DNA of 32,000 nt from Candidatus Saccharimonadota bacterium (GTDB lineage: Bacteria; Patescibacteriota; Gracilibacteria; UBA4473), in assembly GCA_965228485.1 (NCBI GenBank), contig OZ245819.1:90001-122000 (forward strand), written 5' to 3'. Under the pieces are notes generated by a model that saw nothing but the letters and a program-made list of their open reading frames with translations, was not told the DNA's origin and ran no database searches. The position numbers and the translations under genes were made by a program. Of this stretch, positions 57 through 32,000 are shown in pieces. Every line of letters begins with the position of its first letter. The stretch's first letter is position 1.

Positions 57-845
57 TTAATTATCAATAAACTCAGTGATTATTTCTGTAAACATTCCAT
101 CTGACCAGAGGTCGTTATGTCCTCGATTTGGAATGAGGAGGTAGGACTTTTTTTGACTGGGGATGGTTTCGAATAGTTCCTCGGAGAAAGTATGGGGGAT
201 GAGTTGATCTTGGTTGCCGTGGATGATAAGGAGTTCGTTGTGGTAGTCTTTGAGCCACTGGATATTATCGTATTTTTCTCGGAGAATTATGGCGGCGGGG
301 TAGATTTTGTATTTTGATTGGGCGAGTTTGGTGAGGGTTGAGAAAGGAGTAACGAGAATGAGTTCGTCGGTATTGCCGAGGTGGGCATGATGGCTGGCGG
401 CACCTGTTCCGATACTTTGTCCGTAGACGGTGGTTTTTTGGAATCCTTTGTCTTCTATGAATTGATGAATGTTTTTGACATCTTTAAGGATGAGTTTGTA
501 GGATGGTTTTTTGCCGTCGTTTGAGTAGCCAGCGTATTCGACAAAGATGAGATGTTTGTTGCTGGTTTCGAATATGGATTTAATGGCGCTTCTATCACAG
601 GCTGATCCGGCATTTCCGTGATAGTAGACGAGAACTTCTGAATTAGTGCCTTCTTTGTAATAGAATCGAGTGCCGTTGTGGTTTAGTTTTTCATAATCTT
701 TGAATCCGTAGCAGCTTTCAAAATCTTGATTATCGGGGTAGTAAATAATTGATCTTTGGCTCATAAAAAGAAACAGTCCAAAGCATAGATAGACGGCTAG
801 GATTATTCGACCAAAGATGACGGCGATTTTTCGAGTTTTTTTCAC
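57..845 (-). CDS. Membrane-anchored alpha/beta-fold hydrolase
   Basis: The 262-aa ORF has an N-terminal hydrophobic helix (IAVIFGRIILAVYLCFGLFLF). It has a GxSxG nucleophile elbow (GQSIGTG), and a late HGNQDQLIP plus GHND consistent with the Asp/His of a Ser-Asp-His triad. Confidence 0.7.
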   Translation of the reverse strand: MKKTRKIAVIFGRIILAVYLCFGLFLFMSQRSIIYYPDNQDFESCYGFKDYEKLNHNGTRFYYKEGTNSEVLVYYHGNAGSACDRSAIKSIFETSNKHLIFVEYAGYSNDGKKPSYKLILKDVKNIHQFIEDKGFQKTTVYGQSIGTGAASHHAHLGNTDELILVTPFSTLTKLAQSKYKIYPAAIILREKYDNIQWLKDYHNELLIIHGNQDQLIPHTFSEELFETIPSQKKSYLLIPNRGHNDLWSDGMFTEIITEFIDN

Positions 846-7033: not shown

Positions 7034-7795
7034 ATGGCAGTAACTGCAGCACAAGTAAAAGAACTTCGCGACCGAACAGGGGTTGCAATGATGGCGTGTA
7101 AAAAAGCGCTTGAAGAAGCTAACGGTAATATGGAGGAAGCTATTGAGATTCTTCGAAAACGAGGAGCCGCTAAAGCTGCTGAAAAAGCTGATCGATCAAC
7201 TGGAGAAGGTCGAGTAGCGATTTCAGGACGAGTAATTGTTAAACTCCTTTGTGAAACAGACTTCGTAGCAAAGAATGAAAACTTTATTGCTTTTGCTCAA
7301 GAAGTAGCAGACAAAGCTTCTACGGATGGTGTTGAAGCCGCTAAAGATCATTTTGAGTCAGTAAAAACTGATAAAATTCAAGAAATTGGAGAAAATATTG
7401 TATTAGAAGATACTCAAGAAATTGAAGGAGGTGATGTTCTTGGAGGATACGTTCACTCAAATGGGAAAATTGCCGTACTTGTTGCTCTTGAAGGAGGGGA
7501 CGAAGAAAAAGCAAAAGATGCAGCAATGCATGCAGCGGCTATGAATCCATTAGTTGCACGACCTGATGAAGTAGATCAAGCTCTAATTGATAAAGAAAAA
7601 GAAATTGCTCGAGATCAACTTATTAATGAAGGAAAACCAGAAACTATTATCGACAATATTATTGCTGGTAAAATTAAAAAATTCTGTGCTGAACGAGCAC
7701 TTGTTTCACAAGCTTTTGTAAAAGACCCAAGCGTGACGGTTGAAGAACACCTTGGAGACGCTAAAGTTGTAGGATTTGTTCGAGTAGAAGTTTAA
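7034..7795 (+). CDS. tsf: Translation elongation factor Ts
   Basis: The N-terminal UBA-like block [40 protein letters not shown] is present, then [12 protein letters not shown] and HAAAMNP. Confidence 0.95.
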
Positions 7796-10572
7796 TCGCT
7801 CTGTAATTGTAAAAGTGCACGAGCTCCATAATTCCCTTTCAGGATAGCCTGAGAGGGATTTATATTATTATAGGCACTTAGTGGTACTTGGCTCATGTCG
7901 ATTCCAAGTGCTTCTTGGATTTTCGCAATAGTATTTTGATATCGAGCAAATCTTAATGGATAGCCTTCAGCACTTGTTCTTGAAAGTAAAGAGTTTGCGG
8001 AATTTTCCGTGATTATGCGTAAAACGTATGATAGATCTTGTGATGTTATCCCTGCTGATTTTATTTTTTGTATAGCGGGCTTGTTGGAATTCCAGTTTTC
8101 TTTTATGAACATTACAACACCTCTTACTGTGTCATAAAACAATTCATTATCTAGATTTCTAGATTCGTATGATATGTCTCCAGGCATTGAAGGTTTCCAC
8201 TCAACCTGAAAACCTCCAACGAATTTTTCGGTATCTAGTGATGAATCTTTGTCTGATCCATCAGAAGAAAGAAGTCCAATTTCCTGAGCTACAAGGATCC
8301 AGCGGTTATAGTCTTCAATTGTTCGAGCTACCGTTGGATTTGGGTTGTACATGTTGGCCAGAATTCTTGCTTGGTGAATAATAGAGTTGGACCAGGTTGT
8401 GCCCGTTAGTTCTGCGATTGACTGGGCTTGGGATAAGTTGCTTCTATTTAGTGTTTGTGCGGCGATAAGACTTGCTTCTGGACAATTAATTAGAAAACTT
8501 TCGATCATTTCTTCAATTTTTCGTCGATCGTCTTTGTTGTCTACGGCGGTTTTTATGGTTTTAATGGTGTCTTTATGTTTTTTATAGAGTTTAGGGTGCT
8601 CAATAAAATTTCGATAAAATCTATTAAATTTTATTCGAACAAGACTTTCTTGTGTTTGCATTTCTCCTACGGATTCTTCATCCGTGAAATCAAAAAAATG
8701 ATCACCAGGTAATAGGTTGTCAAAAATTCGAGATCTGGCATTTCGGTTTAGTGGATCTGGCCATTGTTCGTTACCAGCTTCATTTTGCCAAATAGCAATT
8801 AAGGTTATTTGATCTCGTGGTTCAGGTGCAACTCTTCTTAAAAAATCATAATTAAATGGGAAGCCTTCTGGTATCTGGATTCCACTTTCTTGGAAAATTT
8901 TTTCATTTTCTTTTTGGTGCTCAGAAAAGGCTTTAATTGCTTTTTCTTTAATACTATCAGCAATAGTTTTTTCTAAGAAAAAAACATTATTGATAGTAAT
9001 TGATTGACCTAAATTTATGCCGCTTTCTAAAAGAGCGCTCACGTAAGAGTTAGGGTCACTTTTTTTTATGTCTTGAGTGAGGGTCTGAAAAATTTCTGGT
9101 GAACTTTGAAAAAAGTATCGAAGTTCTGCTGGTGAAGCATTTAGACTTGGTCCAAGTAGTCTGCCTATAAAATCCTGAAGTTTTTCAGGTGGCTGAGTTT
9201 CAACAATTTGTTTTTCTCCTGCAAAATTGGTTTTTAAAATATCGTAATATTTGTCTATGGCTTCACGATTTTTAAAGATTGGAATTTTTTGTCCGGTACG
9301 TAGATTTTGTGGATTAGTGTTAAAGAGCCAGTAGTATATTTGTTGTAGTTTAAAGTAGTTTTCACTAAAGGCCGGAACATCACCATTAAGGTGTTTGGTT
9401 ATTATTTCCGAGAAACTTTCTCCATTTTTATATTCATGATAGTCAATATTTTCGTTTTGTAGCCCAGTTATTTCTGGGTGATTAAAATAATCACTATATG
9501 GTGGATTGAGTCTGGCGGCACTGACAGCCGTGAATAAAGGCTTTTCTTGATATTTGGTGAGCAAAGTTAGGGTAAGGCTTTTTTTGCGGAGTTCTGGGCC
9601 AAATGATTCTTCTAGGAATGTGTCATGAATTATGATGTTATTTCCAGCGGGGGTATTTAATACTTCTGACAAAGAATTTGTATTTCCAGAGTCATTAAAT
9701 TCAACCATAACTTTTGCTATGAGTGGATTTTGCCAGTCTATACTATCTCCAGATCGAAGGTAAAATTTTTCTAGTGTTTGTTTTACTGTTCCATGGCCTG
9801 GGTAGAGCCGGCTTTCATTTGGAAGAGATATTACTGAATGTGAATTAGGATCGATGTCACTATTTCTTCGTCCTGCTTGGATTATATCTGATGAATATGA
9901 AGTTCGAGCATAGTGAAGTCCTAAAGCTTTAGGCGTATCATCGAGTTTGATTCTTTCAATATATGTTTTTAGATGTTGTTGGTAGCCTGGAGAGTTGAAA
10001 TCAGGTGCTGTAATATTATTTCCACGGATTTGTAGGAACTTTTCTCCATTACTAATTTCTTCTGCAAGATTATTTTTTGTGAGATAGGGGATTAGAGTCC
10101 AAGCATCCTGGCTGAGAACGCCTTCATCTCCAGTAATATAATAGAGGTGGTATCCTGTGAATTTAGCACAAAAATCCCTTATGTCGCTTCGGGTTTCTTT
10201 TTGTGATTGAATGACTTGTCGGACTCTAGCACTTCTAAGTTGAGGAAATGCTACTAAGTGAGGGAAAGGTATTTCGGTCATTGGAAGAGATCGAGTTTTT
10301 TCCTCCTCTGGGAATGGGCAACTTGTATCAAACTTATTTTTAACACTTAGTTCTATCCCTTCGTTATACACTAAGAATTGCCCTGATTTTATATCAAAGA
10401 AATTTCCATTTTCGGTTTTTAATTGTAGTTGTGATATTTCTCTCCAGATTTGCTCGTTAGTTTTGTTCTCAAAAAGTTCATGATCGAGCTCTCTCAAAGC
10501 ATCATAAATACTGTTGTGCTGATCCGATATTTCAACGGCTTTTGTAGCCCCGCATTCATGAATTTCACCCAT
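7792..10572 (-). CDS. Large hypothetical protein (926 aa), no recognisable domain
   Basis: The ORF is long and uninterrupted, with ordinary amino-acid composition. I saw no signal peptide, TM helix, P-loop or metal-binding motif. It is last in a same-strand string after nth and the PH-like membrane protein. Confidence 0.75.
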
Positions 10573-10603
10573 CGGGTGATTATACCATTTTTTAGATCAA
10601 AAG

Positions 10604-11101
10604 TCACGAGGTTTTATAAAGGGGAAAACGAGTTTTTCCTTCTTTCTTTCGTCGTTGCATTTTTAGGATGAAACCAGCGACATCATCGGCTTTTTTAAGA
10701 GGCATGAATTCCAATTTTGTACCTGCAATTATTTCTAGTTTGTTACCGAACCAAGAATTAGTTTGTTGAACATTTACTTCTTTGATTTCTTCGAGGTTAA
10801 TCCAAACAGAAGCTTCATCTGAATGTTTCATAACTCTATAGTTACTGATAATTAATGCTTTTAAAGATCGTTGTTTTATACTCCAGACAATTAGTCGGAT
10901 GAATAGTCCTGCTTGTATAAAAATAACGATGCTTATCCCCAGTAGAGTCTGATTATGAAAGAGAAGGCTTATTCCAAAGCAGATGAGGATAAAGATAAAT
11001 ACGGCAAACCAAATTTTTAAAGCGGTTCCTATATGAAAAAACATTGGAGCGTGTAGCTCTGCTAAAATTTTTTCATCAGGCATAAGTTTTACTGATTTCA
11101 T
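10604..11101 (-). CDS. Membrane protein with bacterial PH-like (bPH/YdbT-like) C-terminal domain
   Basis: Two hydrophobic helices are followed by a beta-rich segment (YRVMKHSDEASVWINLEEIKEVNVQQTNSWFGNKLEIIAGTKLEF), an arrangement typical of bPH_2-type proteins. Its ATGA start/stop overlaps nth. Confidence 0.5.
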   Translation of the reverse strand: MKSVKLMPDEKILAELHAPMFFHIGTALKIWFAVFIFILICFGISLLFHNQTLLGISIVIFIQAGLFIRLIVWSIKQRSLKALIISNYRVMKHSDEASVWINLEEIKEVNVQQTNSWFGNKLEIIAGTKLEFMPLKKADDVAGFILKMQRRKKEGKTRFPLYKTS

Positions 11102-13172: not shown

Positions 13173-13649
13173 TTAATGAACGGTAGGCCTCTCTTTTAAT
13201 GCTTGTTCAATTTCGTAAATGATCAAGTTTACAAGGCCTTGAGTGGTAAGATGACTTTCTGTTATATCTTCGTGAAAATCTTTCTGTGGTGTATGTAGAG
13301 CGTAAATCTGATCACAGTTTTGATATCTTCTGTGTATGGCTTTGATTCTTGTGGCAACATGAAAAACTCCATTTTCTACTACATTTCTTCTGGCTTTTAA
13401 TTGTTGATGATTTGGTGTCCCAAAGACGACTCTTAATCCAAAGTCTAGGCAGTCTCCTTCTGGGGAGCGACAGAGGCTTAATTGTGATATTGCTGAAAAA
13501 TTACCGAGTCGTTTTTCTGTCGCTGTTTTTTCCAGAAGTGCATAGACTCTTGGTAAGATTTTTGCGGTGATATCTTCAGCTTGAGTATACCCTAATAGCG
13601 GAACACCTAGTGTTTCTATCTGTTCCTCTGTAACATCTATTTGCGCCAT
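13173..13649 (-). CDS. Hypothetical protein; weak QueF/T-fold-like motif resemblance
   Basis: The 158-aa ORF lies downstream of the DHOD-like gene on the same strand. GVPLLG, SLCRSPEGDCLDF and DFHED occur in the same order as GVTLLG, SLCPKTGQPDF and DFHED in my recollection of type-I QueF. I do not see the QueF E-S-K-S-L-K motif. Confidence 0.55.
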   Translation of the reverse strand: MAQIDVTEEQIETLGVPLLGYTQAEDITAKILPRVYALLEKTATEKRLGNFSAISQLSLCRSPEGDCLDFGLRVVFGTPNHQQLKARRNVVENGVFHVATRIKAIHRRYQNCDQIYALHTPQKDFHEDITESHLTTQGLVNLIIYEIEQALKERPTVH

Positions 13650-16494: not shown

Positions 16495-17526
16495 ATGGCC
16501 ATAGAAGAAGAAAATACTATTGAGAGTCCAGAAGAAGGCGTGGCTTCAGGGAATGTTATTACTGGAGAAACTGAGGCGTTTGAAAATCAATTAAGGCCGA
16601 AAGATTTTTCACATTATATAGGACAGAGTGAGGTAAAAAATAATCTTACGGTCTTCGTGAAAGCGGCTAAAAATAGGGGAGAAACTTTGGACCATACTAT
16701 TTTTTATGGGCCACCAGGACTTGGGAAGACAACTTTGGCTATGATTTTAGCCACGGAAATGGGAGTTCAGTTGAGAGTCACCTCTGGCCCAGCTTTGGAA
16801 AAACCAGGAGATTTAGCTTCGATTCTTTCAAATTTACAAGAAGGAGATTTTCTGTTTATTGATGAAATCCATCGTCTTCGAATGCCAGTAGAAGAGATTC
16901 TTTATACGGCCATGGAAGATTTCGCGATAGACATCGTGATTGGAAAAGGTCCGAGTGCTCGAACGATGAGAATTAATGTGCCTCGTTTTACGCTTATTGG
17001 AGCAACGACACAAATTTCGCGGTTATCAAATCCTTTAAGAGATCGTTTTGGTCATGTGGAAAAACTTCGTTATTACGAGAATGAAGAAATTCAAAGTATT
17101 ATAGAACAATCGGCTGATATCTTAGAGGTTGATATCGAAAAAAAGGCTTCAGAAAGACTCTCAAAATCTGCACGACGAACCCCTCGGATTGCGAATAGAC
17201 TACTTAGAAGAATGAGAGATTTTGCAGAAATCCTGCATGAAGGAAAGATTACTGAGAAAGTAGTAGAAGAGGGGTTAAAGAGCCTTTCTATTGATGAGTA
17301 TGGGTTAGACTATGCGGATCAGGAATATCTCAAAGTATTATGTGAGAAATTTAAAGGTGGTCCTACGGGTCTTTCTACTTTGGCGGCAGCCATTGGAGAA
17401 GATGAAGCAACGGTTGAAGAAGTAATTGAGCCCTTTCTGATTCGAGAGGGATTTATTCAGAAGACCCCAAGGGGTAGGCAGGCGACGGATCTGGCTTTTC
17501 AGCATTTGAAGCTTGGGATGCTGTAG
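16495..17526 (+). CDS. ruvB: Holliday junction branch-migration helicase RuvB
   Basis: LRPKDFSHYIGQ, Walker A GPPGLGKTT, Walker B FIDEIHRL, the sensor GATT, and the RTPRIANRLLRR arginine finger/winged-helix region are all present. Confidence 0.96.
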   Translation: MAIEEENTIESPEEGVASGNVITGETEAFENQLRPKDFSHYIGQSEVKNNLTVFVKAAKNRGETLDHTIFYGPPGLGKTTLAMILATEMGVQLRVTSGPALEKPGDLASILSNLQEGDFLFIDEIHRLRMPVEEILYTAMEDFAIDIVIGKGPSARTMRINVPRFTLIGATTQISRLSNPLRDRFGHVEKLRYYENEEIQSIIEQSADILEVDIEKKASERLSKSARRTPRIANRLLRRMRDFAEILHEGKITEKVVEEGLKSLSIDEYGLDYADQEYLKVLCEKFKGGPTGLSTLAAAIGEDEATVEEVIEPFLIREGFIQKTPRGRQATDLAFQHLKLGML

Positions 17527-17656
17527 GTTGACTTTTTGTGTTAAATGTTTAAAAAAGGAATATCCACTAGAGTAGGATTTTTCTTTCATCGCGAAACGAA
17601 CATTCTCCAGTGGAGGAATTTGTTCTTTTCGTAACTATCAAACGGCTGAAACTTAC

Positions 17657-17662
17657 AGGAGG
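17657..17662 (+). promoter_or_regulatory. Canonical Shine-Dalgarno (AGGAGG) for the KAS gene
   Basis: AGGAGG lies 8 nt upstream of the ATG at 17671. Native genes in the window (rpsB, tsf, pyrG, glnA, ruvB, secD, ligA) have A-rich leaders without such a site. Confidence 0.7.
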
Positions 17663-17670
17663 AAGCCATC

Positions 17671-18915
17671 ATGAGAAGAGTAGTTGTAACAGGACTGGGG
17701 ATCGTATCACCACTGGGCGCAGATGCCCAAACGGTGACAGCCGCGCTGCAGGCAGGAACGTCGGCAACACGACTTGACCCAGTTTTCAAAGAAATGGGTT
17801 TTCGGTGTCATGTATCAGCGCCGATTCCAAACCTGGCCGAACTGGCCGAGGAGCTTGATCGGAAGCAGAAGAGCTTCCATGGCAAGGGGGATACCCTGCT
17901 GATCGGGCACCTGGCTATGGCTCGGGCGGTTGCGGACTCGGGTCTGACTCTGGACCAAATTTCGGATCCGATGGTCGGCCTGTACTGCGGTACGGGCGGT
18001 CCTTCGACGGAAGATCAGGTTCAGGCGGTCAATACCACCATCGAAAAAGGTGGCCCAAAACGTATGGGGCCGCGTATGGTCACGCCGACCATGAGCTCCG
18101 GTCTACAAGCGGTGCTGTGTACGCAGTACCAGATCAAGGGTCTGAACATTTCGATGACTTCCGCCTGCGCGACCAGTGCTCATAGCATTGGGGAAGCCTG
18201 GTGGGCGATTCGGACGGGGCGGCAGAACATCATGTTCGCCGGTGGTTCAGAAGATTGCCACTGGACAAAGGCCTGTGGCTTCGACGCGATGCCGGCACTT
18301 GCTCAGGGGTTCAACGATTCGCCGGAAGTAGCCTCTCGTGCTTTCGATGCTGGCCGGAGTGGCTTTGTCGATGCGGCTGGCGGCGGGATGATCGTTCTCG
18401 AAGAGTATGAGGCGGCGAAGGCTCGTGGCGCCAAGATCTACGCGGAGCTTGTCGGATACGGGGCCAACTCTGACGGCGATGATATGGTCGCTCCTTCTGG
18501 GGAAGGCGCTGAGCGGTGCATGAAAATGGCGCTCTCGACTGTTGATGGTGACATTGATTACGTCAACCCGCACGGAACGTCCACGCCGGTCGGTGATGTC
18601 AAGGAGGTCGGGGCTCTGGCTTCGATCTTTTCCGCAAGACAGGAGGCGCTTCCGCTTTTGGCTTCCACGAAGTCGATGACGGGACATGCTCTTGGCGGCG
18701 CTGGCGTGACTGAAGCGATCTACACGTTGCTGATGATGCAGGGGGACTTTGTCGCTCCTTCGATCAACATCGATGAGATCGACCCGGAAATTGCCGCTTT
18801 GGGCTGGACCGATTTCATTCCACGTGAAGCCCGTGAACGCAAAATCCGCCAGGCGCTCTCCAACAGCTTCGGCTTTGGGGGGACAAACGCCTCTCTGGTT
18901 TTTGCGGCCGTCTGA
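17671..18915 (+). CDS. fabB: 3-oxoacyl-[ACP] synthase, KAS I/II family (FabB-like)
   Basis: It appears collinear by eye, end to end, with E. coli FabB as I recall it: VVVTGLGIVSPLG, SACATSAH (Cys166), GGSEDCHWTKACGFDAMPAL, DMVAPSGEGAERCMKMA, NPHGTSTPVGD (His301), SMTGHALG (His339), SNSFGFGGTNASLV. The Cys-His-His triad is intact. Confidence 0.9.
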   Translation: MRRVVVTGLGIVSPLGADAQTVTAALQAGTSATRLDPVFKEMGFRCHVSAPIPNLAELAEELDRKQKSFHGKGDTLLIGHLAMARAVADSGLTLDQISDPMVGLYCGTGGPSTEDQVQAVNTTIEKGGPKRMGPRMVTPTMSSGLQAVLCTQYQIKGLNISMTSACATSAHSIGEAWWAIRTGRQNIMFAGGSEDCHWTKACGFDAMPALAQGFNDSPEVASRAFDAGRSGFVDAAGGGMIVLEEYEAAKARGAKIYAELVGYGANSDGDDMVAPSGEGAERCMKMALSTVDGDIDYVNPHGTSTPVGDVKEVGALASIFSARQEALPLLASTKSMTGHALGGAGVTEAIYTLLMMQGDFVAPSINIDEIDPEIAALGWTDFIPREARERKIRQALSNSFGFGGTNASLVFAAV

Positions 18916-18930
18916 TCTACGAAAAGAATT

Positions 18931-18975
18931 GGGGCAGAGCACTTGTGTTCCTGCCCCTTTTCGTCATTTTTTTTT
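18931..18975 (+). terminator. Rho-independent terminator with G/C stem, belonging to the island
   Basis: GGGGCAG (18931-18937) pairs with CTGCCCC (18951-18957) around a 13-nt loop, followed by TTTTCGTCATTTTTTTTT. Confidence 0.7.
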
Positions 18976-18982
18976 AAAATCT

Positions 18983-19010
18983 TTGCAAATATAAAAATTC
19001 GAGTTACAAT
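18983..19010 (+). promoter_or_regulatory. Candidate sigma70-type promoter upstream of pyrG
   Basis: TTGCAA (18983-18988), a 16-nt spacer, then TACAAT (19005-19010). The predicted start (~19017) falls inside the left arm of the following hairpin. Confidence 0.35.
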
Positions 19011-19012
19011 GG

Positions 19013-19043
19013 AATCCCGTAGAGCACTGCGGGATTTTTTTTT
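19013..19043 (+). terminator. Second rho-independent terminator (host-like composition)
   Basis: AATCCCG (19013-19019) pairs with CGGGATT (19030-19036) around a 10-nt loop, followed by a T9 run. Confidence 0.7.
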
Positions 19044-19092
19044 AGAAAAGCCAGTTCTCGTGCTGTACGAAATCTGTATTTTTTAGTTTATA

Positions 19093-20697
19093 ATGTCAAA
19101 ATTTGTATTCGTTACGGGAGGTGTTTGTAGTAGTTTAGGAAAGGGGATTGTAGCTTCTAGTGCCGCGGCTATTTTAAAATCGTCGGGCTTGAAAGTAGCT
19201 ATTATGAAATTGGATCCTTATTTGAATGTAGATCCAGGAACGATGAGTCCTTTTCAGCATGGAGAGGTTTTTGTTCTTGATGATGGAAGTGAGACGGATT
19301 TGGATTTAGGACATTATGAACGTTTTATCGATACACCTTTGAGTGGCGTATGTACGGTAACAACTGGAAAAGTGTATAGTGAGGTATTAGAAGAGGAAAG
19401 AGAAGGGAAGTATCTTGGAGGAACAATCCAGGTTGTACCCCATATTACCAGTAAGATTTTGCAAAAAGTAGAAGCTGCGGCTAAAAAAATGAAAGTTGAT
19501 GTATTGGTGGTTGAAATTGGAGGGACGGTTGGAGATATTGAAGGAGAGCCATTTTTGGAAGTGATTCGTCAGATGAAAAATAAATATGGTGATGATCTTG
19601 TGTCATTGCATTTGACACTACTACCGTATTTAGCTGCTTCTGGAGAGCTTAAGACTAAACCAACTCAATTGTCGGTAAGAGAGCTAAGACGTGTAGGGAT
19701 TCATCCTGATATGATCTTCTGTAGAGCGGATGTAAAAATTCCAAAAGCGCTTCTAAAGAAAGTCGCTTATTTTTGTGATGTGGCAGAAGATTGTGTAATT
19801 CCAGCTGAAACCGTTAAATCTATTTATGAAGTTCCACTGCGTTTTGAGAAAAGTAAGGTTGGAGAAATTTTAGCTAAGAAATTAAACCTTGGAGACCTAA
19901 AGTTTGATCTTTCTGAATGGGAAGAGGGAGTGCAAAAAATCATTAGAACGAAAAAAGAATTAACGATTGGTTTGGCTGGTAAATACAACGAATTGGATGA
20001 TGCTTATTTGTCGGTTATTGAAGCAGCTAAATCAGCGGGATTCTTTCACGGATACAAAGTTGGTATTGAATGGATTGATACCGAGCTTATCGAGCAAAAG
20101 GATGAAGCTGAATGGGAAAAATTAAAGAATGTATCTGGGGTAGTTGTTCCAGGGGGATTTGGTAATCGAGGAACTGAAGGAAAAATTCTTGTAGCTCAAT
20201 ATTGTCGAGAGAATGAGAAACCATACTTAGGACTCTGTCTTGGAAGTCAGATTATGGCGATAGAATTTGCACGAAATGTTCTAGGTCTAAAAGATGCTAC
20301 AAGTGAAGAATTCGATGAAGCTGGAAAGTCTAAAAATCATGTAATTCATTTTATTCCAGAGCAGAAAAACATCAGAAGAAAAGGCGGGACGATGCGTTTA
20401 GGAGCTTATGATTGTCGGATTGAGAAGGGAACTAAGGCTTTTGAAATTTATGGGCAAGCAAATGTCTCTGAACGACATAGGCATCGTTATGAGTTTAATG
20501 ATGAATTTTTGCTAAAATTTGAAGGGAGTGATTTTGTGATTTCAGGAAGAAATCCACAGTCTGATCTTGTAGAGATTGTGGAGATTAAAAACCATCCGTT
20601 TATGGTAGCGGGACAATTTCACCCAGAGCTGATTAGTCGACCATTCAAACCACATCCACTCTTCAGAGCTTTTATTGGTGCGGCAAAAGATAATTAA
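19093..20697 (+). CDS. pyrG: CTP synthase
   Basis: The N-terminal KFVFVTGGVCSSLGKG, DPYLNVDPGTMSPFQHGEVFV and HYERF are present. The glutaminase domain has GLCLGSQ (catalytic Cys) and HPE. Confidence 0.97.
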   Translation: MSKFVFVTGGVCSSLGKGIVASSAAAILKSSGLKVAIMKLDPYLNVDPGTMSPFQHGEVFVLDDGSETDLDLGHYERFIDTPLSGVCTVTTGKVYSEVLEEEREGKYLGGTIQVVPHITSKILQKVEAAAKKMKVDVLVVEIGGTVGDIEGEPFLEVIRQMKNKYGDDLVSLHLTLLPYLAASGELKTKPTQLSVRELRRVGIHPDMIFCRADVKIPKALLKKVAYFCDVAEDCVIPAETVKSIYEVPLRFEKSKVGEILAKKLNLGDLKFDLSEWEEGVQKIIRTKKELTIGLAGKYNELDDAYLSVIEAAKSAGFFHGYKVGIEWIDTELIEQKDEAEWEKLKNVSGVVVPGGFGNRGTEGKILVAQYCRENEKPYLGLCLGSQIMAIEFARNVLGLKDATSEEFDEAGKSKNHVIHFIPEQKNIRRKGGTMRLGAYDCRIEKGTKAFEIYGQANVSERHRHRYEFNDEFLLKFEGSDFVISGRNPQSDLVEIVEIKNHPFMVAGQFHPELISRPFKPHPLFRAFIGAAKDN

Positions 20698-20786: not shown

Positions 20787-21977
20787 ATGCGTAAGTATTT
20801 TTTTCAGGCTGTAACTCAAGAGGGGAAACAAATCTCAGGATTTGTGAGTGCTCCTTCTTTAGATGAGGCTAGAGATAAGCTTAAGGCAGGGGGACTTTCA
20901 ATCCTTACTCTGGAAGAGCCTAAAGAGGATTTAACTGGGAAGTTAGTTGCAGGGCTTAAGTCTTTTGAATTTGAAGCTACAAATAGTGCTCGAAAGAAAA
21001 TTAGAGGGACGATTGAAGCGGAAGATCGTTATGCCGCTTACAAAAAATTGAGACTCGAATATGAGTTAGAAGTTGATTATATCGCTGATATGACATTGCC
21101 TCCAAGTAAGAAAGAGGCAGAAAAGGCTAAGGGGATTGAGCAGGATTTGGTAGAACGTCTAAAAATTGAAGTCAAGATTGCAGAGAAGAAAGAGAGTAAG
21201 AAGAAAAAAGGGAAAAAAAAGAAAGAGGAAAATACTACTGATGAAATTCAAGAAGCGGTAGAGGCGAATGAGAAAGAGCGGCAGTTTATGATGGAAAAGA
21301 TCGATGCAGTTCTTTCTGAAGTGATTCCACTTCTAGAAGAAAATGCTGAGTATATTGATACTAATAAAAAACGTCAGATTGAAGAGAGGATTAACCTCTT
21401 GATGCGTTTGAAACACTCTAATTCAGTGGCGCATCTAAAGAGCCTGACAAAGCGTATTCTCGATCAGATCACCAATGATGAGATCTTTTTGCAGGATTCG
21501 AATATTCCACCAGACCTACAAGAAGAAATTGATCGTCGGAAGACGGCCTTCCAGTCGGTGGGAAGAAAATTTGATAAAGCCATTAGTAAAGGGTTGGTAG
21601 ACCTTCAGGTTCAGTTGGCTAAAATTGATACCCAGGGATTGAAGGATACCGTAACAGAAATTCGGTTGATTGAGCAATTGATCAATATTTTCTATCTTAC
21701 TTTTTCGTGTCTATTTTTATACTTCGTTGGTTTTTTAATTTTTAATTTAGGGCGTGGTTTGATGGAAATTTCTGTGAGTCAGAGTAATTTTTATCTGACG
21801 TCCCCATTGATTTGGTATGCTTGGGGATTCTCTTTGATTCTGATCGTTTCTTTTTACTTTTTTCGGTTTTCTCCACAGGTAAAAAATTGGAGAGATAAGA
21901 TAATTGTTCTGGCAAGTACAGCATTGGCTCTGTTCCTATATACCGTACAATTTCCTGTTATTTTTTACTGGGTATAG
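20787..21977 (+). CDS. Hypothetical membrane protein with two GspF/PilC-N-terminus-like modules, a coiled-coil/Lys-rich linker and 3 C-terminal TM helices
   Basis: Residues 1-44 (MRKYFFQAVTQEGKQISGFVSAPSLDEARDKLKAGGLSILTLEE) match the pattern of the extreme N-termini of T2SS-F/PilC platform proteins. A second copy spans residues 60-99 (FEFEATNSARKKIRGTIEAEDRYAAYKKLRLEYELEVDYI). The C-terminus has hydrophobic helices. I recognise no canonical T2SSF helical-bundle block. Confidence 0.7.
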   Translation: MRKYFFQAVTQEGKQISGFVSAPSLDEARDKLKAGGLSILTLEEPKEDLTGKLVAGLKSFEFEATNSARKKIRGTIEAEDRYAAYKKLRLEYELEVDYIADMTLPPSKKEAEKAKGIEQDLVERLKIEVKIAEKKESKKKKGKKKKEENTTDEIQEAVEANEKERQFMMEKIDAVLSEVIPLLEENAEYIDTNKKRQIEERINLLMRLKHSNSVAHLKSLTKRILDQITNDEIFLQDSNIPPDLQEEIDRRKTAFQSVGRKFDKAISKGLVDLQVQLAKIDTQGLKDTVTEIRLIEQLINIFYLTFSCLFLYFVGFLIFNLGRGLMEISVSQSNFYLTSPLIWYAWGFSLILIVSFYFFRFSPQVKNWRDKIIVLASTALALFLYTVQFPVIFYWV

Positions 21978-24434: not shown

Positions 24435-26597
24435 TTATTTTTTTCGTTTTCGAACTTTTGCACCAACCGTTTTCTTTTTGTGGTTGATACTTGACTCTGA
24501 CACTCCAAATAAATTTGGATTTTGCATTCCAGGGATAAGAATGAGTAGTCGAAGTAAATTTCGAGAAATTGTTACGGCTGTAAACATTGAAAGGAGTGTT
24601 CCAACAATTAATGTAATAGCGAATCCTTTTACTACAGAACTTCCCAGAGAGAAAAGAATAATACAAGTGATTAGTGTCGTTAGATTTGAGTCTCGAATAG
24701 CTGTCCAGGCTCTTTCAAACCCTAAATCAATGGCTTGGCTCAAGGTTCTCCCTCGTCGAAGTTCTTCTTTTAATCGTTCGAAGATAAGAATATTTCCATC
24801 AACCGCTAATCCAATAGATAGGGCGATACCAGCGGCACCTGCAAGAGTGAGAACGATTGGACCACCAAGAGATGTTGGCCAGACTTTTAGGAGGGTAATA
24901 AATAGTGCAGAGTAGAGAAGGAGGGCAATTGCAGCCACAATTCCTGGAATTCGATAGATCAAAATCATAAAGAGAATGGTTGCCGCTAGTCCTAATACTG
25001 CAGCTTTGATACTTTTATTTAGTTGATCAGCTCCAAGTTCGGCTTGAATTGTTGTTTGTCCACTAAGGATTACAGGCGCATCAATAGCCCCAAGATTCAG
25101 TCCATCGGATAATTCTTTGGCTTCTTCGTAGGTGAAACTTCCTGTGATTTGTGCGTTTCGACCTGAAATCTTTTCACTTACGTACGGAAGGCTAATCCAT
25201 TCACCTCCAACCTTAATTCCAAGTCTACAGTTTGTATTATTACATTGTTGAGCGGCTAACTGTTCTGTGATTTGAGCAAATAGCCTTCCACCTTCACTGT
25301 CGAATCTTAGATCAACGAGAGGACTTCCAACTTGGTCATATCCTACTCGAGCAATTTCTAGCTGTCCTCCTCCCAGCTCGGTTTCTGACCAGGTGATATC
25401 ATCTTTATTCCATGATAAAAGTTCGTACGTAACTTTTTTGGTTGGTTGAACGGCTGTCAGTTCTTTTTGTACAGCCTGCACATCAATAATGTGGAAACCA
25501 AAATCAGTTTCGATAACTTCCTCAATAAGTTGAGGTGTCTCCAGAGCAAAAACAGCATCATTAAAAGGTCCAACCATACTTCCTGGCTCGAATTCACCTA
25601 AATCTCCACCGCTTTCGGCTGATGGTCCAGTTGAAAATTCTTTTGCTAATTCTGCAAAATCTGCACCATCTTTAATTTGTTGTAAAATTTCTTCAGCTTT
25701 TGCTTGAGCTTCCTCTTTACTGGCATAAGGAAGTTCCTCAGGAGCTCTCATGGCTTCTGGATGAGCAATAAGAATATGTCGTGCAGTAGCTTTTGCTGGG
25801 GTGGTGCTTTCTTTATCTTCTTCTGTTACGGCTGTTAGTCGAGCAATCCCAAGCATATTTCGTGGAAATGGAGATCCTTCAATGGTTAGTTCACCAGACT
25901 CATTAACGGTAAAACTTGGTTGAATAGTAGTATCAACAATTTCTTGAAGGACTTCTCCTGGAGCTAGTGTTGCTAATTTTTTCCCGAGTTCAGCATCTTC
26001 CATTTCATCAAGGAAGACTGGTCCAAAACTTTCCAACAAAGCACCTCTTTGAACTACATATTCAGGAGCTTTTTGCTCCCAATTTTCAGCATTGATATCT
26101 GTAGTGAGCCACTCAGCAATTTCTAGTCGTTTTCCAACGATGGCTCCAGGGTCTTCAGCGTAGAACTCTAGTCGATTGTCTTTTTCGGCATCACTTTTTG
26201 CTTGTTCTACATTTGAAGAGGGTGGCATCTGGATGAGAATGTGTTCTTCATTATTGATCTGAGATCTTTTAACGATAATTTCTCCAATTCCTGCTGGATT
26301 CACCCTTCGCTCTAGAGAATCTCTTACCGATTCTGAAATATCATTAATACTTACATCATTGGTTGGATCATCATCATTGTTTTGAGTAAGAGCATCCGTA
26401 AGATCTATTTTATAGTCTAGCTCTGTTCCTCCAGCGAGGTCGAGACCAAGAGTAATTTTGAAATTTTCTAATCGTTGAACGATTGATGAATCGGATCCTG
26501 CTATTTGAGCAATCCAAGAAGACGGGACGCTAAACACTCCAGCAATAAGAGCGATTGCGATCACAAAGGCAAAACGGTTAAGGATCTGTTTTTTCAT
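24435..26597 (-). CDS. secD: Protein translocase subunit SecD with an inserted parvulin-type peptidyl-prolyl isomerase domain
   Basis: SecD blocks are present: LGLDLAGGTEL, the P1-head-like GSPLVDLRFDSEGGRLFAQIT...ITGSFTYEEAKELSDGLNLGA, and the TM block LAVDGNILIFERLKEE. Residues ~270-376 (25470-25790) read as a parvulin domain: ARHILIA..., GADFAELAKEFSTGPSAESGGDLGEF, MVGPFNDAVF, TDFGFHII. Confidence 0.9.
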   Translation of the reverse strand: MKKQILNRFAFVIAIALIAGVFSVPSSWIAQIAGSDSSIVQRLENFKITLGLDLAGGTELDYKIDLTDALTQNNDDDPTNDVSINDISESVRDSLERRVNPAGIGEIIVKRSQINNEEHILIQMPPSSNVEQAKSDAEKDNRLEFYAEDPGAIVGKRLEIAEWLTTDINAENWEQKAPEYVVQRGALLESFGPVFLDEMEDAELGKKLATLAPGEVLQEIVDTTIQPSFTVNESGELTIEGSPFPRNMLGIARLTAVTEEDKESTTPAKATARHILIAHPEAMRAPEELPYASKEEAQAKAEEILQQIKDGADFAELAKEFSTGPSAESGGDLGEFEPGSMVGPFNDAVFALETPQLIEEVIETDFGFHIIDVQAVQKELTAVQPTKKVTYELLSWNKDDITWSETELGGGQLEIARVGYDQVGSPLVDLRFDSEGGRLFAQITEQLAAQQCNNTNCRLGIKVGGEWISLPYVSEKISGRNAQITGSFTYEEAKELSDGLNLGAIDAPVILSGQTTIQAELGADQLNKSIKAAVLGLAATILFMILIYRIPGIVAAIALLLYSALFITLLKVWPTSLGGPIVLTLAGAAGIALSIGLAVDGNILIFERLKEELRRGRTLSQAIDLGFERAWTAIRDSNLTTLITCIILFSLGSSVVKGFAITLIVGTLLSMFTAVTISRNLLRLLILIPGMQNPNLFGVSESSINHKKKTVGAKVRKRKK

Positions 26598-29341: not shown

Positions 29342-29443
29342 ATGGAGACTTCCTACCAAACGCTTTCGAATCGGGAAAAGTTAGAAATTTTATCTGAATT
29401 AGAAGTCAAACTTCTAGAACTTGTTAACAAAAATAACGCCTAA
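29342..29443 (+). CDS. Micro-ORF, 33 aa, helical; not in supplied ORF track
   Basis: My hand translation is METSYQTLSNREKLEILSELEVKLLELVNKNNA, with a stop at 29441-29443, 3 nt before the next ATG. Confidence 0.3.
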   Translation: METSYQTLSNREKLEILSELEVKLLELVNKNNA

Positions 29444-29446
29444 AAA

Positions 29447-31999
29447 ATGACAGGAAATATTCGACAGGCTATCGACAATATTGGAGCGGCTCAGGTTGAT
29501 TTTGATGGTGATCGAGATCAAGAGACGTTGAAGCAGCATGAAGCCACTAAAGAAGAACTAGATAAGCACTCACAAGGAGTGGAAGTGGCTGATAAAGATC
29601 TTCAAAATGCTGTTAAATCTTGTAAGGATTTAATAGAAAGCCTAAGAAGCTCAGGAGCAGATTCCACGGAAACAGAAGCTTCAATTCGTCAGGCTTTGCA
29701 AGAGGTCACAGGGGGGAATCAAGCGGAACTTGATTGGCTATTGAAAGAATCAGGTATTGATATCTCGAAATTAGATACCACTGGAGAGGCTAAATTTGGA
29801 TCGGATGATCTGCTTGGAGCTGTTGAGACTACCACAGAAGGGCCAGCGAGACATGAACAAATGTTTGCAATTCTTTCTGGTTTGAATGGAGCTTCTACTC
29901 AAGCTCAACAATTATTTTCTCAGGCACATTTTTCTCGTTATGAAACCTCGACTGATCCAGTAGAAAAACAAGGGGTTCTAGATGATTGGGTAACTTATAT
30001 TCAGAGTACTTTGGTTAAAGAGAGAGAGATGAAAGAACCTGAAAAAGCTTTGGTAACTGCAGCAGAAAAAGTACTAGCTGATTTGGATGGAATAACCACG
30101 GCTCCAGAAACAAGAGATGCGGGCAGAGATCAAGCACCAGAATCTACAGAAACAGTAGAGACTAACAAAGTTGCTATGGCGGCTCTTGCAGAGTTTCTTG
30201 GAGTTTCGGCTGATAGCCCTGAAGCGTTAAAGTCTGCTCTTTCGACAAAACTTCAAGCAGAAGGAGGGCCAAAAGCCGTTTTAGATTTTATAAGTGGTTT
30301 GAAAAATAATGCTTCTCTTATTTCTAGTTTAGCTGGGAAATTCCCTTTTTCAGAAACTGCAGTAAAACAAGCTTTTGAACAAGTTTCTAAAGCAGTTTTA
30401 GGAGATTTGCAAAATGATTTTAAAGACGGTGTTCCTGATAAGTTAGATAAAGAAAAAGCTGATAGGATGGCGGAAGGAGTTGTAGAAGGTTTAGATTCAT
30501 TAACACCAGATCAGCCAAATCCTTTTGAGATGCCTGATTGGGCGCCCGGGAAAGCTCAGGAGAGAATATCAGATTTATTTACCAATTTTCCAGATATTGT
30601 TTCCACTGATACAGAGCAGTTAACTACGGATAAAGTTGAAAAATATTTGAAAGGTATATTAGAGAAGGCTTTAAGTTCTAATGATGCTGACGCTTTAAGA
30701 AAGCTCGGTAGTGTGTTAGGATTCTCATTTAGTGAGACCGATCCTGAGAAACTTAAAACTCACATTAAAGAGAATGAATCTGAAATTATGAAAAGAATTG
30801 GTGAAGTTGCCAAAGAAGCAAATGGAAAAAGTAAGGCAGAAGCTCAACGAGAAGCTATTGAAGCCAATCAAGCAAAAGCAAGTGAGCTTATTGATCAAGC
30901 CGCTAAAGAGTTTCCAGAGCATGTGGGAACGCCTCGATGGGAGCGTTGGGTTAATAAGTTAGCGAATGGAGAAACACAAAAATCTTTTGCCGAATACTTA
31001 GCTGAAGATGAACCTGTGGAAGGTTTAGAAGTCATTATTTTAATGCTTAAAAAACTGTTTATGCAGTTTAAAAGTTTGATGGATAGCTTTGGTAAAAAAG
31101 AAGGAGAAACAACTCTTTCTGAACAGTTGCAAGCGGATGTAGATGCTGCAAAAGATAAAATTAAAAATGCTTATTTGGGTAGATTGGGAGAAGAGTTTGG
31201 TCTAACAGCTGAACAAGTTGAGGCTAATCGTGATGGATTAAGTTTTGTTAATGAGAATAGAGATTTATTGGGAGCTGTTCCTAATTTGAATATAGCAGGG
31301 ATGGATCTTAATGGAGATGGGCAGATTACTCCTGCTGAAAAAGTACAAACACTTCAGTCTATGTCGCCAGATCAAAGAGATGTATTAAAAACACTTCTTC
31401 GTTCAGTAGAACAAAAACCATACATGAAAGATGTATTACAGGCTGGATTGGATGGTACAACTATTGATGCCATTTATGATTTTGAATCTAATATGTCTGA
31501 AAAAGATAGAACTGCTGATATTAAAGTTGAAGGAGGAAATCTTGTGGTTAATGGGCAAACAGTAGAGTTGAAACCAGGTAACGATAACGCCATTAAAGAT
31601 TTATTAGAAGCAACTTTAAAAGATGAAGATGGAACTTTGACAACTGTAGAAAGAGATACTACGACAGTACGAAATAGTTTAGAACGTGGAGAAGTTAAAG
31701 GTGAAATTGAGCTTGATGGAGTTCATATAAAAGTTGGAAAGGAAGAACCTATTACTAAAGAATTCTTTGATAAAGCAAAAGCCGCATTGGGGGCTAATCC
31801 AGATTTAGCAAAAGCTTTAGAAGAAGGTTTATCATTAGCTACACTTGAGAAATTTATGAAAATTTTAGAAGACCCAAGAGCCGTGAAAGAGGAGTATGTC
31901 GAGTTTAGAAATGGATATATTAACCTAGATAGTTCAGAATGGTTTGAATGGAATGATGCCTTTGATTATGGCGGTAATTTATTAAGTAAAGAAGCACGT
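29447..31999 (+). CDS. Very large acidic hypothetical protein, 5' partial view (>851 aa, runs off the window); not in supplied ORF track
   Basis: I read this frame codon by codon from the ATG at 29447 to 31999 and found no stop. The product starts MTGNIRQAIDNIGAAQVDFDGDRDQ... It is rich in E/D/K/A/L and has no signal peptide or TM helix in the visible part. It contains one canonical EF-hand loop, DLNGDGQITPAE (31304-31339). The only track ORF here (30725..30922, minus) is antisense to it. Confidence 0.8.
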   Translation, partial: MTGNIRQAIDNIGAAQVDFDGDRDQETLKQHEATKEELDKHSQGVEVADKDLQNAVKSCKDLIESLRSSGADSTETEASIRQALQEVTGGNQAELDWLLKESGIDISKLDTTGEAKFGSDDLLGAVETTTEGPARHEQMFAILSGLNGASTQAQQLFSQAHFSRYETSTDPVEKQGVLDDWVTYIQSTLVKEREMKEPEKALVTAAEKVLADLDGITTAPETRDAGRDQAPESTETVETNKVAMAALAEFLGVSADSPEALKSALSTKLQAEGGPKAVLDFISGLKNNASLISSLAGKFPFSETAVKQAFEQVSKAVLGDLQNDFKDGVPDKLDKEKADRMAEGVVEGLDSLTPDQPNPFEMPDWAPGKAQERISDLFTNFPDIVSTDTEQLTTDKVEKYLKGILEKALSSNDADALRKLGSVLGFSFSETDPEKLKTHIKENESEIMKRIGEVAKEANGKSKAEAQREAIEANQAKASELIDQAAKEFPEHVGTPRWERWVNKLANGETQKSFAEYLAEDEPVEGLEVIILMLKKLFMQFKSLMDSFGKKEGETTLSEQLQADVDAAKDKIKNAYLGRLGEEFGLTAEQVEANRDGLSFVNENRDLLGAVPNLNIAGMDLNGDGQITPAEKVQTLQSMSPDQRDVLKTLLRSVEQKPYMKDVLQAGLDGTTIDAIYDFESNMSEKDRTADIKVEGGNLVVNGQTVELKPGNDNAIKDLLEATLKDEDGTLTTVERDTTTVRNSLERGEVKGEIELDGVHIKVGKEEPITKEFFDKAKAALGANPDLAKALEEGLSLATLEKFMKILEDPRAVKEEYVEFRNGYINLDSSEWFEWNDAFDYGGNLLSKEAR

Positions 32000-32000
32000 T

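Follow-up and report, generated by a model that had tools for sequence, protein, structure and literature searches.

How does a member of the Patescibacteria (Candidate Phyla Radiation, CPR), a group generally reported to lack fatty-acid synthesis (FAS) and for which lipidomics suggests recycling of host lipids (PMC7242380, PMC12455944), come to carry one intact gene for a fatty-acid condensing enzyme, and what could this enzyme do there? The question is raised by a stretch of 32,000 nt (contig OZ245819.1, positions 90,001 to 122,000; hereafter the window), in which a gene for a FabB-like beta-ketoacyl-ACP synthase (KAS; ACP, acyl carrier protein; 17671..18915, forward strand) stands between ruvB and pyrG. 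The window contains 24 gene starts, that of the KAS and those of 23 native genes, which were used as the compositional reference. We favour, with moderate confidence, a recent single-gene transfer of a KAS from a rare clade into the ruvB-pyrG spacer, where the enzyme would have a stand-alone condensing role on scavenged acyl chains.

Composition of the KAS segment

A preliminary description of this DNA had pointed to a G+C-rich island at 17590-18975 with G/C-rich third codon positions and an AGGAGG-N8-ATG start unlike those of the native genes, and had suggested a composition and tetranucleotide profile as a check. All of this was borne out. Among 64 bins of 500 bp, the three across 17501-19000 (51.2, 59.2 and 53.6% G+C) rank highest, with a maximum of 46.0% elsewhere; windows of 100 nt place the step up in G+C at about 17650 and the step down at about 18900. 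The open reading frame (ORF) of the KAS has 58.3% G+C compared to a mean of 38.5% (sd 2.3) for the 23 other genes (z = 8.6), and its G+C content at third codon positions (GC3) is 62.7% compared to 30.1% (sd 6.1; z = 5.4). An index resembling the codon adaptation index (CAI), built on the window's own genes, gave 0.47 for the KAS vs 0.708 +/- 0.042 (z = -5.7). Host-rare codons make up 9.4% of the KAS and 2.3% in host genes, and the tetranucleotide distance in 1.4-kb windows is maximal on the island (0.647 vs a mean of 0.265, sd 0.07). Highly expressed native genes are low in GC3 (tsf 16%, rpsB 22%). The segment is foreign to its host in both composition and codon usage.

The ATG start codon of the KAS at 17671 is preceded by a Shine-Dalgarno (SD) sequence, AGGAGG, at 17657-17662, with a spacing of 8 nt. 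Between -16 and -4, the 23 native starts are all without a core of the type GGAG, GAGG or AGGA, which makes the SD of the KAS the only one among the 24.

Insertion into the ruvB-pyrG spacer

A search of 5.8 billion proteins found the exact proteins of the window on a single contig of 1,295,315 bp. The nearest named relatives of the host PyrG carry Candidatus Gracilibacteria labels (71-77% identity) and a Candidatus Peribacteria label (64%); a taxonomy check places both groups within Patescibacteria/CPR, in agreement with the CPR-type host considered in the preliminary description. Since TGA terminates three native window genes of conserved length, the host uses the standard code (code 11) and the TGA stop of the KAS is valid. 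Code 25, in which UGA encodes glycine, is known in some Gracilibacteria and would lengthen the KAS ORF; it is ruled out by the same three stops. The host belongs to the CPR bacteria of 'Gracilibacteria' type, uses the standard code and has about 38% G+C.

The KAS lies, as first described, between ruvB and pyrG, both of which are native. On the left, ruvB (16495..17526, forward strand; Pfam RuvB_N, AAA_lid_4 and RuvB_C, E = 1.9e-76) ends with a TAG stop at 17524-17526, has 40.9% G+C and 31.4% GC3, and is collinear in two relatives of the host, L083 and L085. On the right, pyrG for CTP synthase (19093..20697, forward strand; Pfam CTP_synth_N, E = 2e-114) has 38.3% G+C and 26.5% GC3. The gene order of the window is glnA, FMN reductase, apbE, truB, rpsB, tsf, nth, M23 peptidase, pyrD, an S1-domain gene, ylxR, ruvB, the KAS, pyrG, lgt, ung, secF, a secD-peptidyl-prolyl isomerase (PPIase) fusion and ligA.

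The surroundings of pyrG were compared in three relatives of the host. In L085 (GCA_020630245.1; PyrG 81% identical) ruvB and pyrG are separated by a gap of 67 bp with no gene between them, in the order pyrD, S1, ruvB, pyrG, T2SSF_N-like gene, lgt, ung, secF, secD, ligA. The sister genome L083 (1.326-Mb contig; PyrG 88% identical) has the order of the window from rpsB to ligA except in the ruvB-pyrG slot, which is occupied by a 553-aa glucosaminidase-domain gene (8006-9667) on the opposite strand with native-like composition (37.7% G+C, 22.9% GC3). Gene order is otherwise conserved on both sides of the slot (pyrD-S1-ylxR-ruvB on the left and pyrG-T2SSF_N-like gene-lgt-ung-secF-secD-ligA on the right). 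An empty slot in one relative and a different gene in the other show that the slot is variable and that the KAS is peculiar to the genome of the window; judged from these gene orders, genes appear to have been gained or lost here repeatedly. Together with the absence, in the protein search, of any KAS more than 60% identical to that of the window, these findings support the earlier view of the gene as acquired.

The insertion extends from 17527 to about 18980 of the window and consists of a single gene on roughly 1.45 kb. Its first part (17527..17670, forward strand) is AT-rich and non-coding, carries the SD, and is either the 5' part of the insertion or leftover ruvB spacer; it forms weak hairpins only (z = -1.97). 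No sigma-70-like promoter was found in this part or anywhere on the insert. Downstream of the gene, at 18919..18975 (forward strand), lies the G/C-stem terminator that had been noted before: a hairpin at 18919-18964 (inverted repeat I17; GGGGCAG...CTGCCCC core) is followed by T9, and folds at -21 kcal/mol (z = -4.4; none of 200 shuffles folds as well).

The right limit of the foreign DNA is set by the native pyrG promoter at 18983..19010 (forward strand; TTGCAA-N16-TACAAT), which is the only promoter-like site in 17300-19300. The promoter region of the window (18983-19021) reads TTGCAA-N16-TACAAT-GGAATCCCGTA, compared to TTGCAT-N16-TACACT-TAAATCCCGTG-ATG in L085 and TTGATT-N16-TACACT-TAAAGCCCGTA-ATG in L083. 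The architecture of -35 box, -10 box and AATCCCGT is common to all three and stands directly 5' of pyrG in L085 and L083. This correspondence is a by-eye judgement, as MAFFT slid the AT-rich stretch and placed the promoter otherwise; we prefer the by-eye alignment, since in it the AATCCCGT 8-mer recurs exactly behind the -10 box and the spacings agree. On either alignment of the promoter, the foreign DNA is confined between the ruvB stop (17526) and pyrG.

Between the promoter with its AATCCCGT motif and the ATG of pyrG, within 19011-19092, the window has an extra leader of about 73 nt that is absent in L085 and L083. A second terminator-like hairpin with a T-run lies at 19011..19043 (forward strand; 12-bp stem, -16.3 kcal/mol, z = -4.2, followed by T9). 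Its 5' arm is the conserved leader, and a transcript starting about 7 nt past the -10 box would miss most of this arm. One may speculate that the hairpin stops upstream read-through while sparing pyrG transcripts, or that it acts as an attenuator.

As the preliminary description had stated, there is no integrase or transposase; nor did the 32-kb window yield a tRNA or an Rfam match. Searches for flanking repeats and target-site duplications at the junctions gave only short matches at chance level. Among viral contigs, phage records and plasmids no related gene exceeded 51-54% identity, and those matches are ordinary chromosomal-type fabB. A mobile vector as the route was dropped on this ground, none of the phage, viral or plasmid matches being above 54% identity. 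The variability of the slot in L083 suggests recombination at an intergenic hot spot. The junctions, which might have been assembly chimeras, are without sign of chimerism in their sequence.

The encoded ketosynthase

The KAS gene is an intact ORF of 414 aa with a TGA stop. Its two Pfam domains, PF00109 (residues 1-249, 107 bits) and PF02801 (257-367, 108 bits), score above the cut-off of 20.8 bits each. The best NCBIfam model is FabB (NF005935, 537 bits), followed by FabF (TIGR03150, 360 bits), and both scores miss the curated cut-offs (630 and 493.75 bits respectively). In the PDB the best match is P. aeruginosa FabB (7PPS, E = 5.7e-137, residues 1-411 of 414); Brucella, Vibrio, Yersinia and E. 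coli FabB are further matches, and FabF scores far lower. The protein is 55% identical to solved FabB over its full length and about 39% identical to E. coli FabF. From these comparisons it is classified among the elongating ketosynthases (KAS I/II, thiolase fold), with FabB as its closest family, though it is no FabB equivalog. The earlier name 'FabB-like' therefore holds as a description of resemblance, and fails where it would imply an equivalent of FabB.

An alignment confirmed the catalytic triad that had been proposed: Cys166, His301 and His339 correspond to Cys163, His298 and His333 of E. coli FabB. Lys334, Thr303, Thr305 and Phe402 match Lys328, Thr300, Thr302 and Phe392, the latter being the gating Phe of the GFGG loop, and Asp309, Glu312, Gly110 (Gly107 in FabB; Ile in FabF) and Gln116 (Gln113) are likewise retained. 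It is established for KAS enzymes that an acyl chain is held on the Cys, and that malonyl-acyl carrier protein (ACP) is decarboxylated and condensed with it to give a beta-ketoacyl thioester two carbons longer. Given this mechanism and the retained residues, a competent decarboxylating condensing enzyme is predicted. The root-to-tip distance of the protein is not inflated (1.095 vs 1.141 +/- 0.029).

Lys200 and Gly203 occupy the positions of Met197 and Glu200 in E. coli FabB, where Glu200 and Gln113' gate the bottom of a 12-carbon acyl pocket (PMC9006962, PMC13160055). At positions 200 and 203 alike, Leu or Met is what most FabB carry, vs Lys and Gly in the clade to which the window protein belongs. 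The pocket of this clade is predicted to be remodelled and partly charged.

A rare clade of FabB-like synthases

The best non-self matches among the 5.8 billion proteins are 58-60% identical to the window KAS, and thousands of proteobacterial FabB follow at 50-57%. A scan of genome contigs with the KAS revealed proteobacterial fabB loci only (49-55% identity). In a neighbour-joining (NJ) tree rooted on E. coli FabF, the window KAS groups with three proteins (P0002, P0003 and P0006). A profile search added P0242, P0243 and P0244, after which the scores fall to a proteobacterial plateau; one plateau match, P0311, which is labelled Candidatus Pacebacteria, also belongs to the clade. All eight proteins (the window KAS and seven others) form one clade with an NJ bootstrap of 130-133/150 (87-89%). 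This clade is separate from, and sister to, all 137 sampled FabB. Within it the window KAS is the deepest branch, sister to the other seven members (144/150).

Two insertions, of 2 aa at 76-77 and of 4 aa at 379-382, are present in 8/8 members and in 0/137 other FabB-type sequences. Twelve signature residues are invariant in the eight (T75, G79, T108, P139, G144, L145, C196, K200, A201, G203, D234 and A236), and each of them has a frequency below 5% in the 137 other FabB. On the NF005935 model six clade members score 489-537 bits (537 for the window KAS, 489-511 for five others) and P0311 lower still, compared to 674-756 bits for four proteobacterial FabB controls. A degenerate DNA pattern for GG-x-EDC...KA-x-GFD detected three more members in metagenomes, which brings the clade to about 11 in total. 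Identity to the window KAS is 52-60% for clade members, compared to the 50-57% of proteobacterial FabB. By its sequence, the window KAS is no FabB of proteobacterial type but branches deepest within a rare clade of solitary FabB-like synthases. The KAS phylogeny that had been suggested as a way to the donor thus gave a placement, and the donor itself is unsampled. As far as the sampled sequences show, the gene stands apart from homologues of its host's lineage, with which the preliminary description had considered that it might group.

In a representative library, P0357, P0358 and P0394 are single-domain proteins of 422-426 aa with 48-55% identity and a partial signature; they carry P139, G144, K200, G203 and D/E234. 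A wider, still rare subfamily may exist beyond the clade on the strength of these residues. A search of the representatives with the clade profile was topped by polyketide megasynthases with multiple ketosynthase domains, whose scores are summed over domains, and the clade is blurred at 50% clustering.

Solitary state and carriers of the clade

The preliminary description had found no partner of type II FAS (FAS-II) adjacent to the KAS, and there is none anywhere in the 32 kb. Searches by tblastn with E. coli FabA, AcpP, FabD, FabG, FabH and PlsX detected no match in the window and nine other clade loci (114 kb), and no FAS-II domain occurs in the precomputed Pfam lists of the clade loci. FabA is the enzyme with which FabB works in elongating cis-3-decenoyl-ACP, and at proteobacterial loci the two genes are close neighbours: in 77/80 cases less than 200 bp lie between them, with a median gap of 40 bp.

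Four of the clade loci (L001, L002, L091 and L094/L095) have a shared neighbourhood of DUF2914, in some cases a large SdrD_B surface protein, the KAS, small ORFs, a uracil-DNA glycosylase (UDG), and in some cases GT4 and MauE; in this lineage the KAS looks resident. L001 is a contig of 745,752 bp whose name is flagged '_c'. L094, the locus of P0311, belongs to a metagenome-assembled genome (MAG) labelled Candidatus Pacebacteria, within Minisyncoccota, the current name for Patescibacteria/CPR. L176, one further member, comes from a sample named 'Hain-H51-01um'. The clade carriers are CPR-type where the context is informative, and at least some of them are CPR. The UDG of L001 is 56% identical to that of the window, an enzyme too conserved for this identity to link the hosts. 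At L092 a SWIB-domain protein (9258-9557) is encoded just upstream of the KAS, beside murJ and lepA. An SD-like motif precedes every KAS gene of the clade, and the imported SD of the window KAS fits such a donor.

The composition of the clade genes was compared with that of their neighbours. In the window the GC3 excess of the KAS is +0.33, vs +0.03 to +0.21 (z 1.0-4.2) at the other clade loci, where the composition of the KAS follows the local one. The KAS is GC3-richer than its neighbours at every clade locus (L001, L002, L091, L092, L093, L094 and L178), with the range of +0.03 to +0.21 in the six compared gene by gene, and the excess persists at loci where conserved synteny suggests long residence. 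As this is an effect on third positions, amino-acid composition cannot account for it; repeated replacement by transfer and selection on the KAS are both possibilities. GC1 is 58-63% and GC2 47-53% in all clade members.

Orphan genes of this pathway are on record in CPR. Complete genomes of Peribacteria lack FAS and have only fabG (PMC4736985). Some Nealsonbacteria have a near-complete FAS-II without ACP-processing genes (PMC7242380). Minisyncoccus archaeiphilus has AccC, FabK, FabG and a protein resembling FabA, for purposes that are unclear (PMC12281837), and acpP and a lysophospholipase are reported to have been gained by horizontal gene transfer (HGT) in Patescibacteria (PMC12455944). A search of the literature on FabB or ketoacyl synthase in CPR revealed no direct report and no description of a solitary FabB-like clade.

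Origin and possible role of the KAS

In the reading that we favour, the donor would be a carrier of the clade that is richer in G+C and has yet to be sampled, plausibly another member of the CPR. Because the gene belongs to the clade and the clade's carriers are CPR-type where their context is informative, a donor among the clade's hosts is likelier than a proteobacterium, and the transfer would be recent because no amelioration is visible. Since no promoter was detected on the insert, transcription would probably occur by read-through from ylxR-ruvB and end at the KAS gene's own terminator. In the enzyme, an acyl chain would be loaded on Cys166, and malonyl-ACP would be decarboxylated and condensed (His301, His339 and Lys334, with Phe402 as gate) to yield the beta-ketoacyl thioester with two more carbons. 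The enzyme would act alone on scavenged acyl chains, with ACP and malonyl donors encoded elsewhere in the genome or obtained from the host cell, and the outcome would be lipid remodelling and not de novo synthesis. The preliminary description had likewise suggested lipid salvage or remodelling, or else a role outside FAS; all of these are tentative.

Several points weigh against this account. The nearest protein is 60% identical and the donor is unsampled, so that both the direction and the recency of the transfer are read from composition alone. The window KAS is basal in the clade, and a donor outside CPR is possible. The tree is a neighbour-joining tree only, and the taxonomy of the carriers was taken from one MAG label, a small genome and a sample name and not from a marker-gene phylogeny. 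The KAS may be poorly expressed, given the absence of a promoter, its poorly adapted codons and a host seemingly without SD-led initiation. In the 32 kb around it neither an ACP nor a source of malonyl-ACP was seen, nor was any enzyme of the reductive part of FAS-II. Finally, where E. coli FabB has Glu200, Leu or Met is found in most FabB of proteobacteria. The loss of the Glu-Gln gate therefore sets the clade apart from E. coli FabB and not from FabB generally; what is specific to the clade is Lys200, Gly203 and the rest of the signature alone.

Much of this would also be expected if the transfer were real and the KAS a functionless passenger, recent, neutral, poorly or not expressed, without substrates and bound to decay. 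This is the main rival explanation, and we regard it as possible though doubtful. It would account for the lack of partner genes within 32 kb in a host whose wider lineage is reported to be without FAS (PMC4736985), for an insert with no detectable promoter, for the 9.4% host-rare codons and the CAI-like z of -5.7, and for an SD in a genome where none of the 23 native genes uses one; the unameliorated composition would moreover imply that selection has had too little time to act. Against a passenger stand an intact ORF in which every catalytic residue is kept and no rate acceleration is seen, and an insert that kept a clean terminator and left the pyrG promoter intact. Divergent small genomes, at 52-66% mutual identity, have moreover retained a gene of this clade, solitary and in conserved surroundings; from this persistence, a solitary copy is evidently useful in such cells. 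A further step beyond the transfer and stand-alone role that we favour, and one that we propose only tentatively, is that the clade represents a CPR-specific family not described so far, made up of solitary ketosynthases that derive from FabB and whose pocket is remodelled and partly charged (Lys200, Gly203, Asp234); the family would spread by gene transfer and be dedicated to a host-lipid step in cells without a resident FAS-II. In such a step scavenged acyl chains could be lengthened by two carbons or re-tailored, or a beta-keto-acyl compound could be made that has nothing to do with the fatty acids of membranes.

The remaining explanations concern where the gene comes from. An ordinary fabB taken over directly and recently from a proteobacterium of the alpha or gamma class, be it a host or a neighbouring cell, would make the window KAS unrelated to the solitary genes. 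This is unlikely, even though thousands of FabB are 50-57% identical and thus little below the 52-60% of the clade, the 58% G+C of the gene matches many proteobacteria, and FabB is the best NCBIfam model. The two insertions and 12 signature residues are shared with the solitary clade and with 0/137 FabB (bootstrap 87-89%), the score of 537 bits lies well apart from the 674-756 of four proteobacterial FabB, and no proteobacterial sequence exceeds 57% identity among the 5.8 billion proteins; furthermore, no fabA came along, although fabA and fabB form an operon at 77/80 loci. An error of assembly (a chimera) or of binning, with a piece of another organism's DNA joined into the contig, would produce a sharp compositional step at both ends and a protein known from a single contig, as observed. 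We nevertheless consider it very improbable, as the foreign piece comprises a single complete gene, including an SD and a terminator of its own, and sits exactly within an intergenic spacer, the gene order of the relatives continues for more than 10 kb on each side, no repeats by which an assembler might be misled lie at the junctions, the slot varies independently in L083 as well, and two precise false joins 1.45 kb apart inside a 1.295-Mb contig are implausible. Least credible of all is a native, vertically inherited gene whose high G+C reflects the Gly/Ala-rich composition of ketosynthases or selection on the gene. GC1 (58-63%) and GC2 (47-53%) are indeed intrinsically high in all clade members, and the KAS is somewhat GC3-richer than its neighbours at every clade locus (+0.03 to +0.21). 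But the excess of +0.33 (z = 5.4) is well above that at the other loci, highly expressed native genes are GC3-poor (tsf 16%, rpsB 22%), the gene is absent at the syntenic site in L085 and L083, and, for all the many relatives of the host that have been sampled, no homologue exceeds 60% identity.

Other features of the window

Besides lacking an SD, several native starts are preceded by a perfect TATAAT ending 7-10 nt before the start codon. It was found upstream of the starts at 20787, 16495, 10572 (reverse strand) and 845 (reverse strand), twice in the form TGGTATAAT. This arrangement suggests that leaderless or near-leaderless mRNAs are frequent in the host organism.

Other parts of the window are also lineage-specific. 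Between tsf and nth, a 926-aa ORF without a Pfam match and a 165-aa ORF (7792-11101, reverse strand) have a host-like 36% G+C; in L083 tsf adjoins nth, which marks 7792-11101 as another lineage-specific segment. A 158-aa ORF at 13173-13649 is absent from L083 as well. An ORF of at least 852 codons (about 29440-32000, forward strand) exits the right end of the window, and its predicted N-terminal part looks rich in Lys, Glu and Asp. The SecD protein (24435-26597, reverse strand; 720 aa) has an N-terminal fused PPIC-type PPIase domain, and the same fusion occurs in L083, L084 and L085.

At 57-845 (reverse strand) the window encodes an alpha/beta-hydrolase of the Hydrolase_4 (PF12146) type. A lysophospholipase of the alpha/beta-hydrolase superfamily (COG2267) is reported as an HGT-acquired lipid-salvage gene in Patescibacteria (PMC12455944), and by analogy the hydrolase gene may be relevant to lipid scavenging by the host.

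Comparison with known systems

Among known enzymes the KAS is most similar to FabB (KAS I) of Gamma- and Alphaproteobacteria (E. coli PDB 1FJ4 and 1EK4; P. aeruginosa 7PPS), its best-scoring family and structure. Both have the two-domain thiolase fold, the Cys-His-His triad, the Lys, the Thr-Thr pair and the Phe gate, and Gly at the FabB-type position 107 (Ile in FabF); Gln113 is kept in the window protein, P0002 and P0003. From these likenesses the same decarboxylative Claisen condensation is predicted. In contrast to FabB, however, the window KAS is only 50-57% identical to this family, lies below the equivalog cut-off and branches outside the sampled proteobacterial FabB, and its clade has two insertions of its own and 12 signature residues including Lys200 and Gly203. 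The clade also has no fabA neighbour, whereas proteobacterial fabB adjoins fabA at 77/80 loci, and its carriers are small genomes of which at least some are CPR, a group reportedly without FAS-II. FabF (KAS II) has the same fold, catalytic residues and reaction, and E. coli FabF aligns over the full length, but identity is only about 39%, the TIGR03150 score is 360 vs 493.75 bits, and the distinguishing pocket position has Gly for Ile.

The locus can further be compared with the orphan FAS-II sets of CPR in Nealsonbacteria (PMC7242380), Minisyncoccus (PMC12281837) and Peribacteria (PMC4736985). Like these, it presents FAS-II genes without a full pathway in ultra-small bacteria; the function of the orphan sets is stated as unclear, and HGT of lipid genes is documented (PMC12455944). 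Here, in contrast, the orphan is a lone condensing enzyme with a clade of its own and a fresh, unameliorated insertion. With classical genomic islands the locus shares the sharp compositional break, the absence in relatives and the variable slot between conserved genes. It differs in that it comprises a single gene on about 1.45 kb and is without integrase, transposase, tRNA and flanking direct or inverted repeats.

Significance

If the KAS were a silent passenger, the finding would reduce to an ordinary HGT event. The locus is also a clean example of how a streamlined genome can gain a single gene without an integrase, at what is probably an intergenic hot spot. Orphan FAS-II genes in CPR are a known puzzle, to which a clade of solitary condensing enzymes that appears to be undescribed in the literature is now added, with the KAS of the window as a fresh insertion in another CPR class than that of the other carriers. 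A rare, sequence-distinct and always solitary KAS offers a concrete, testable handle on how CPR bacteria acquire and tailor their membrane lipids.

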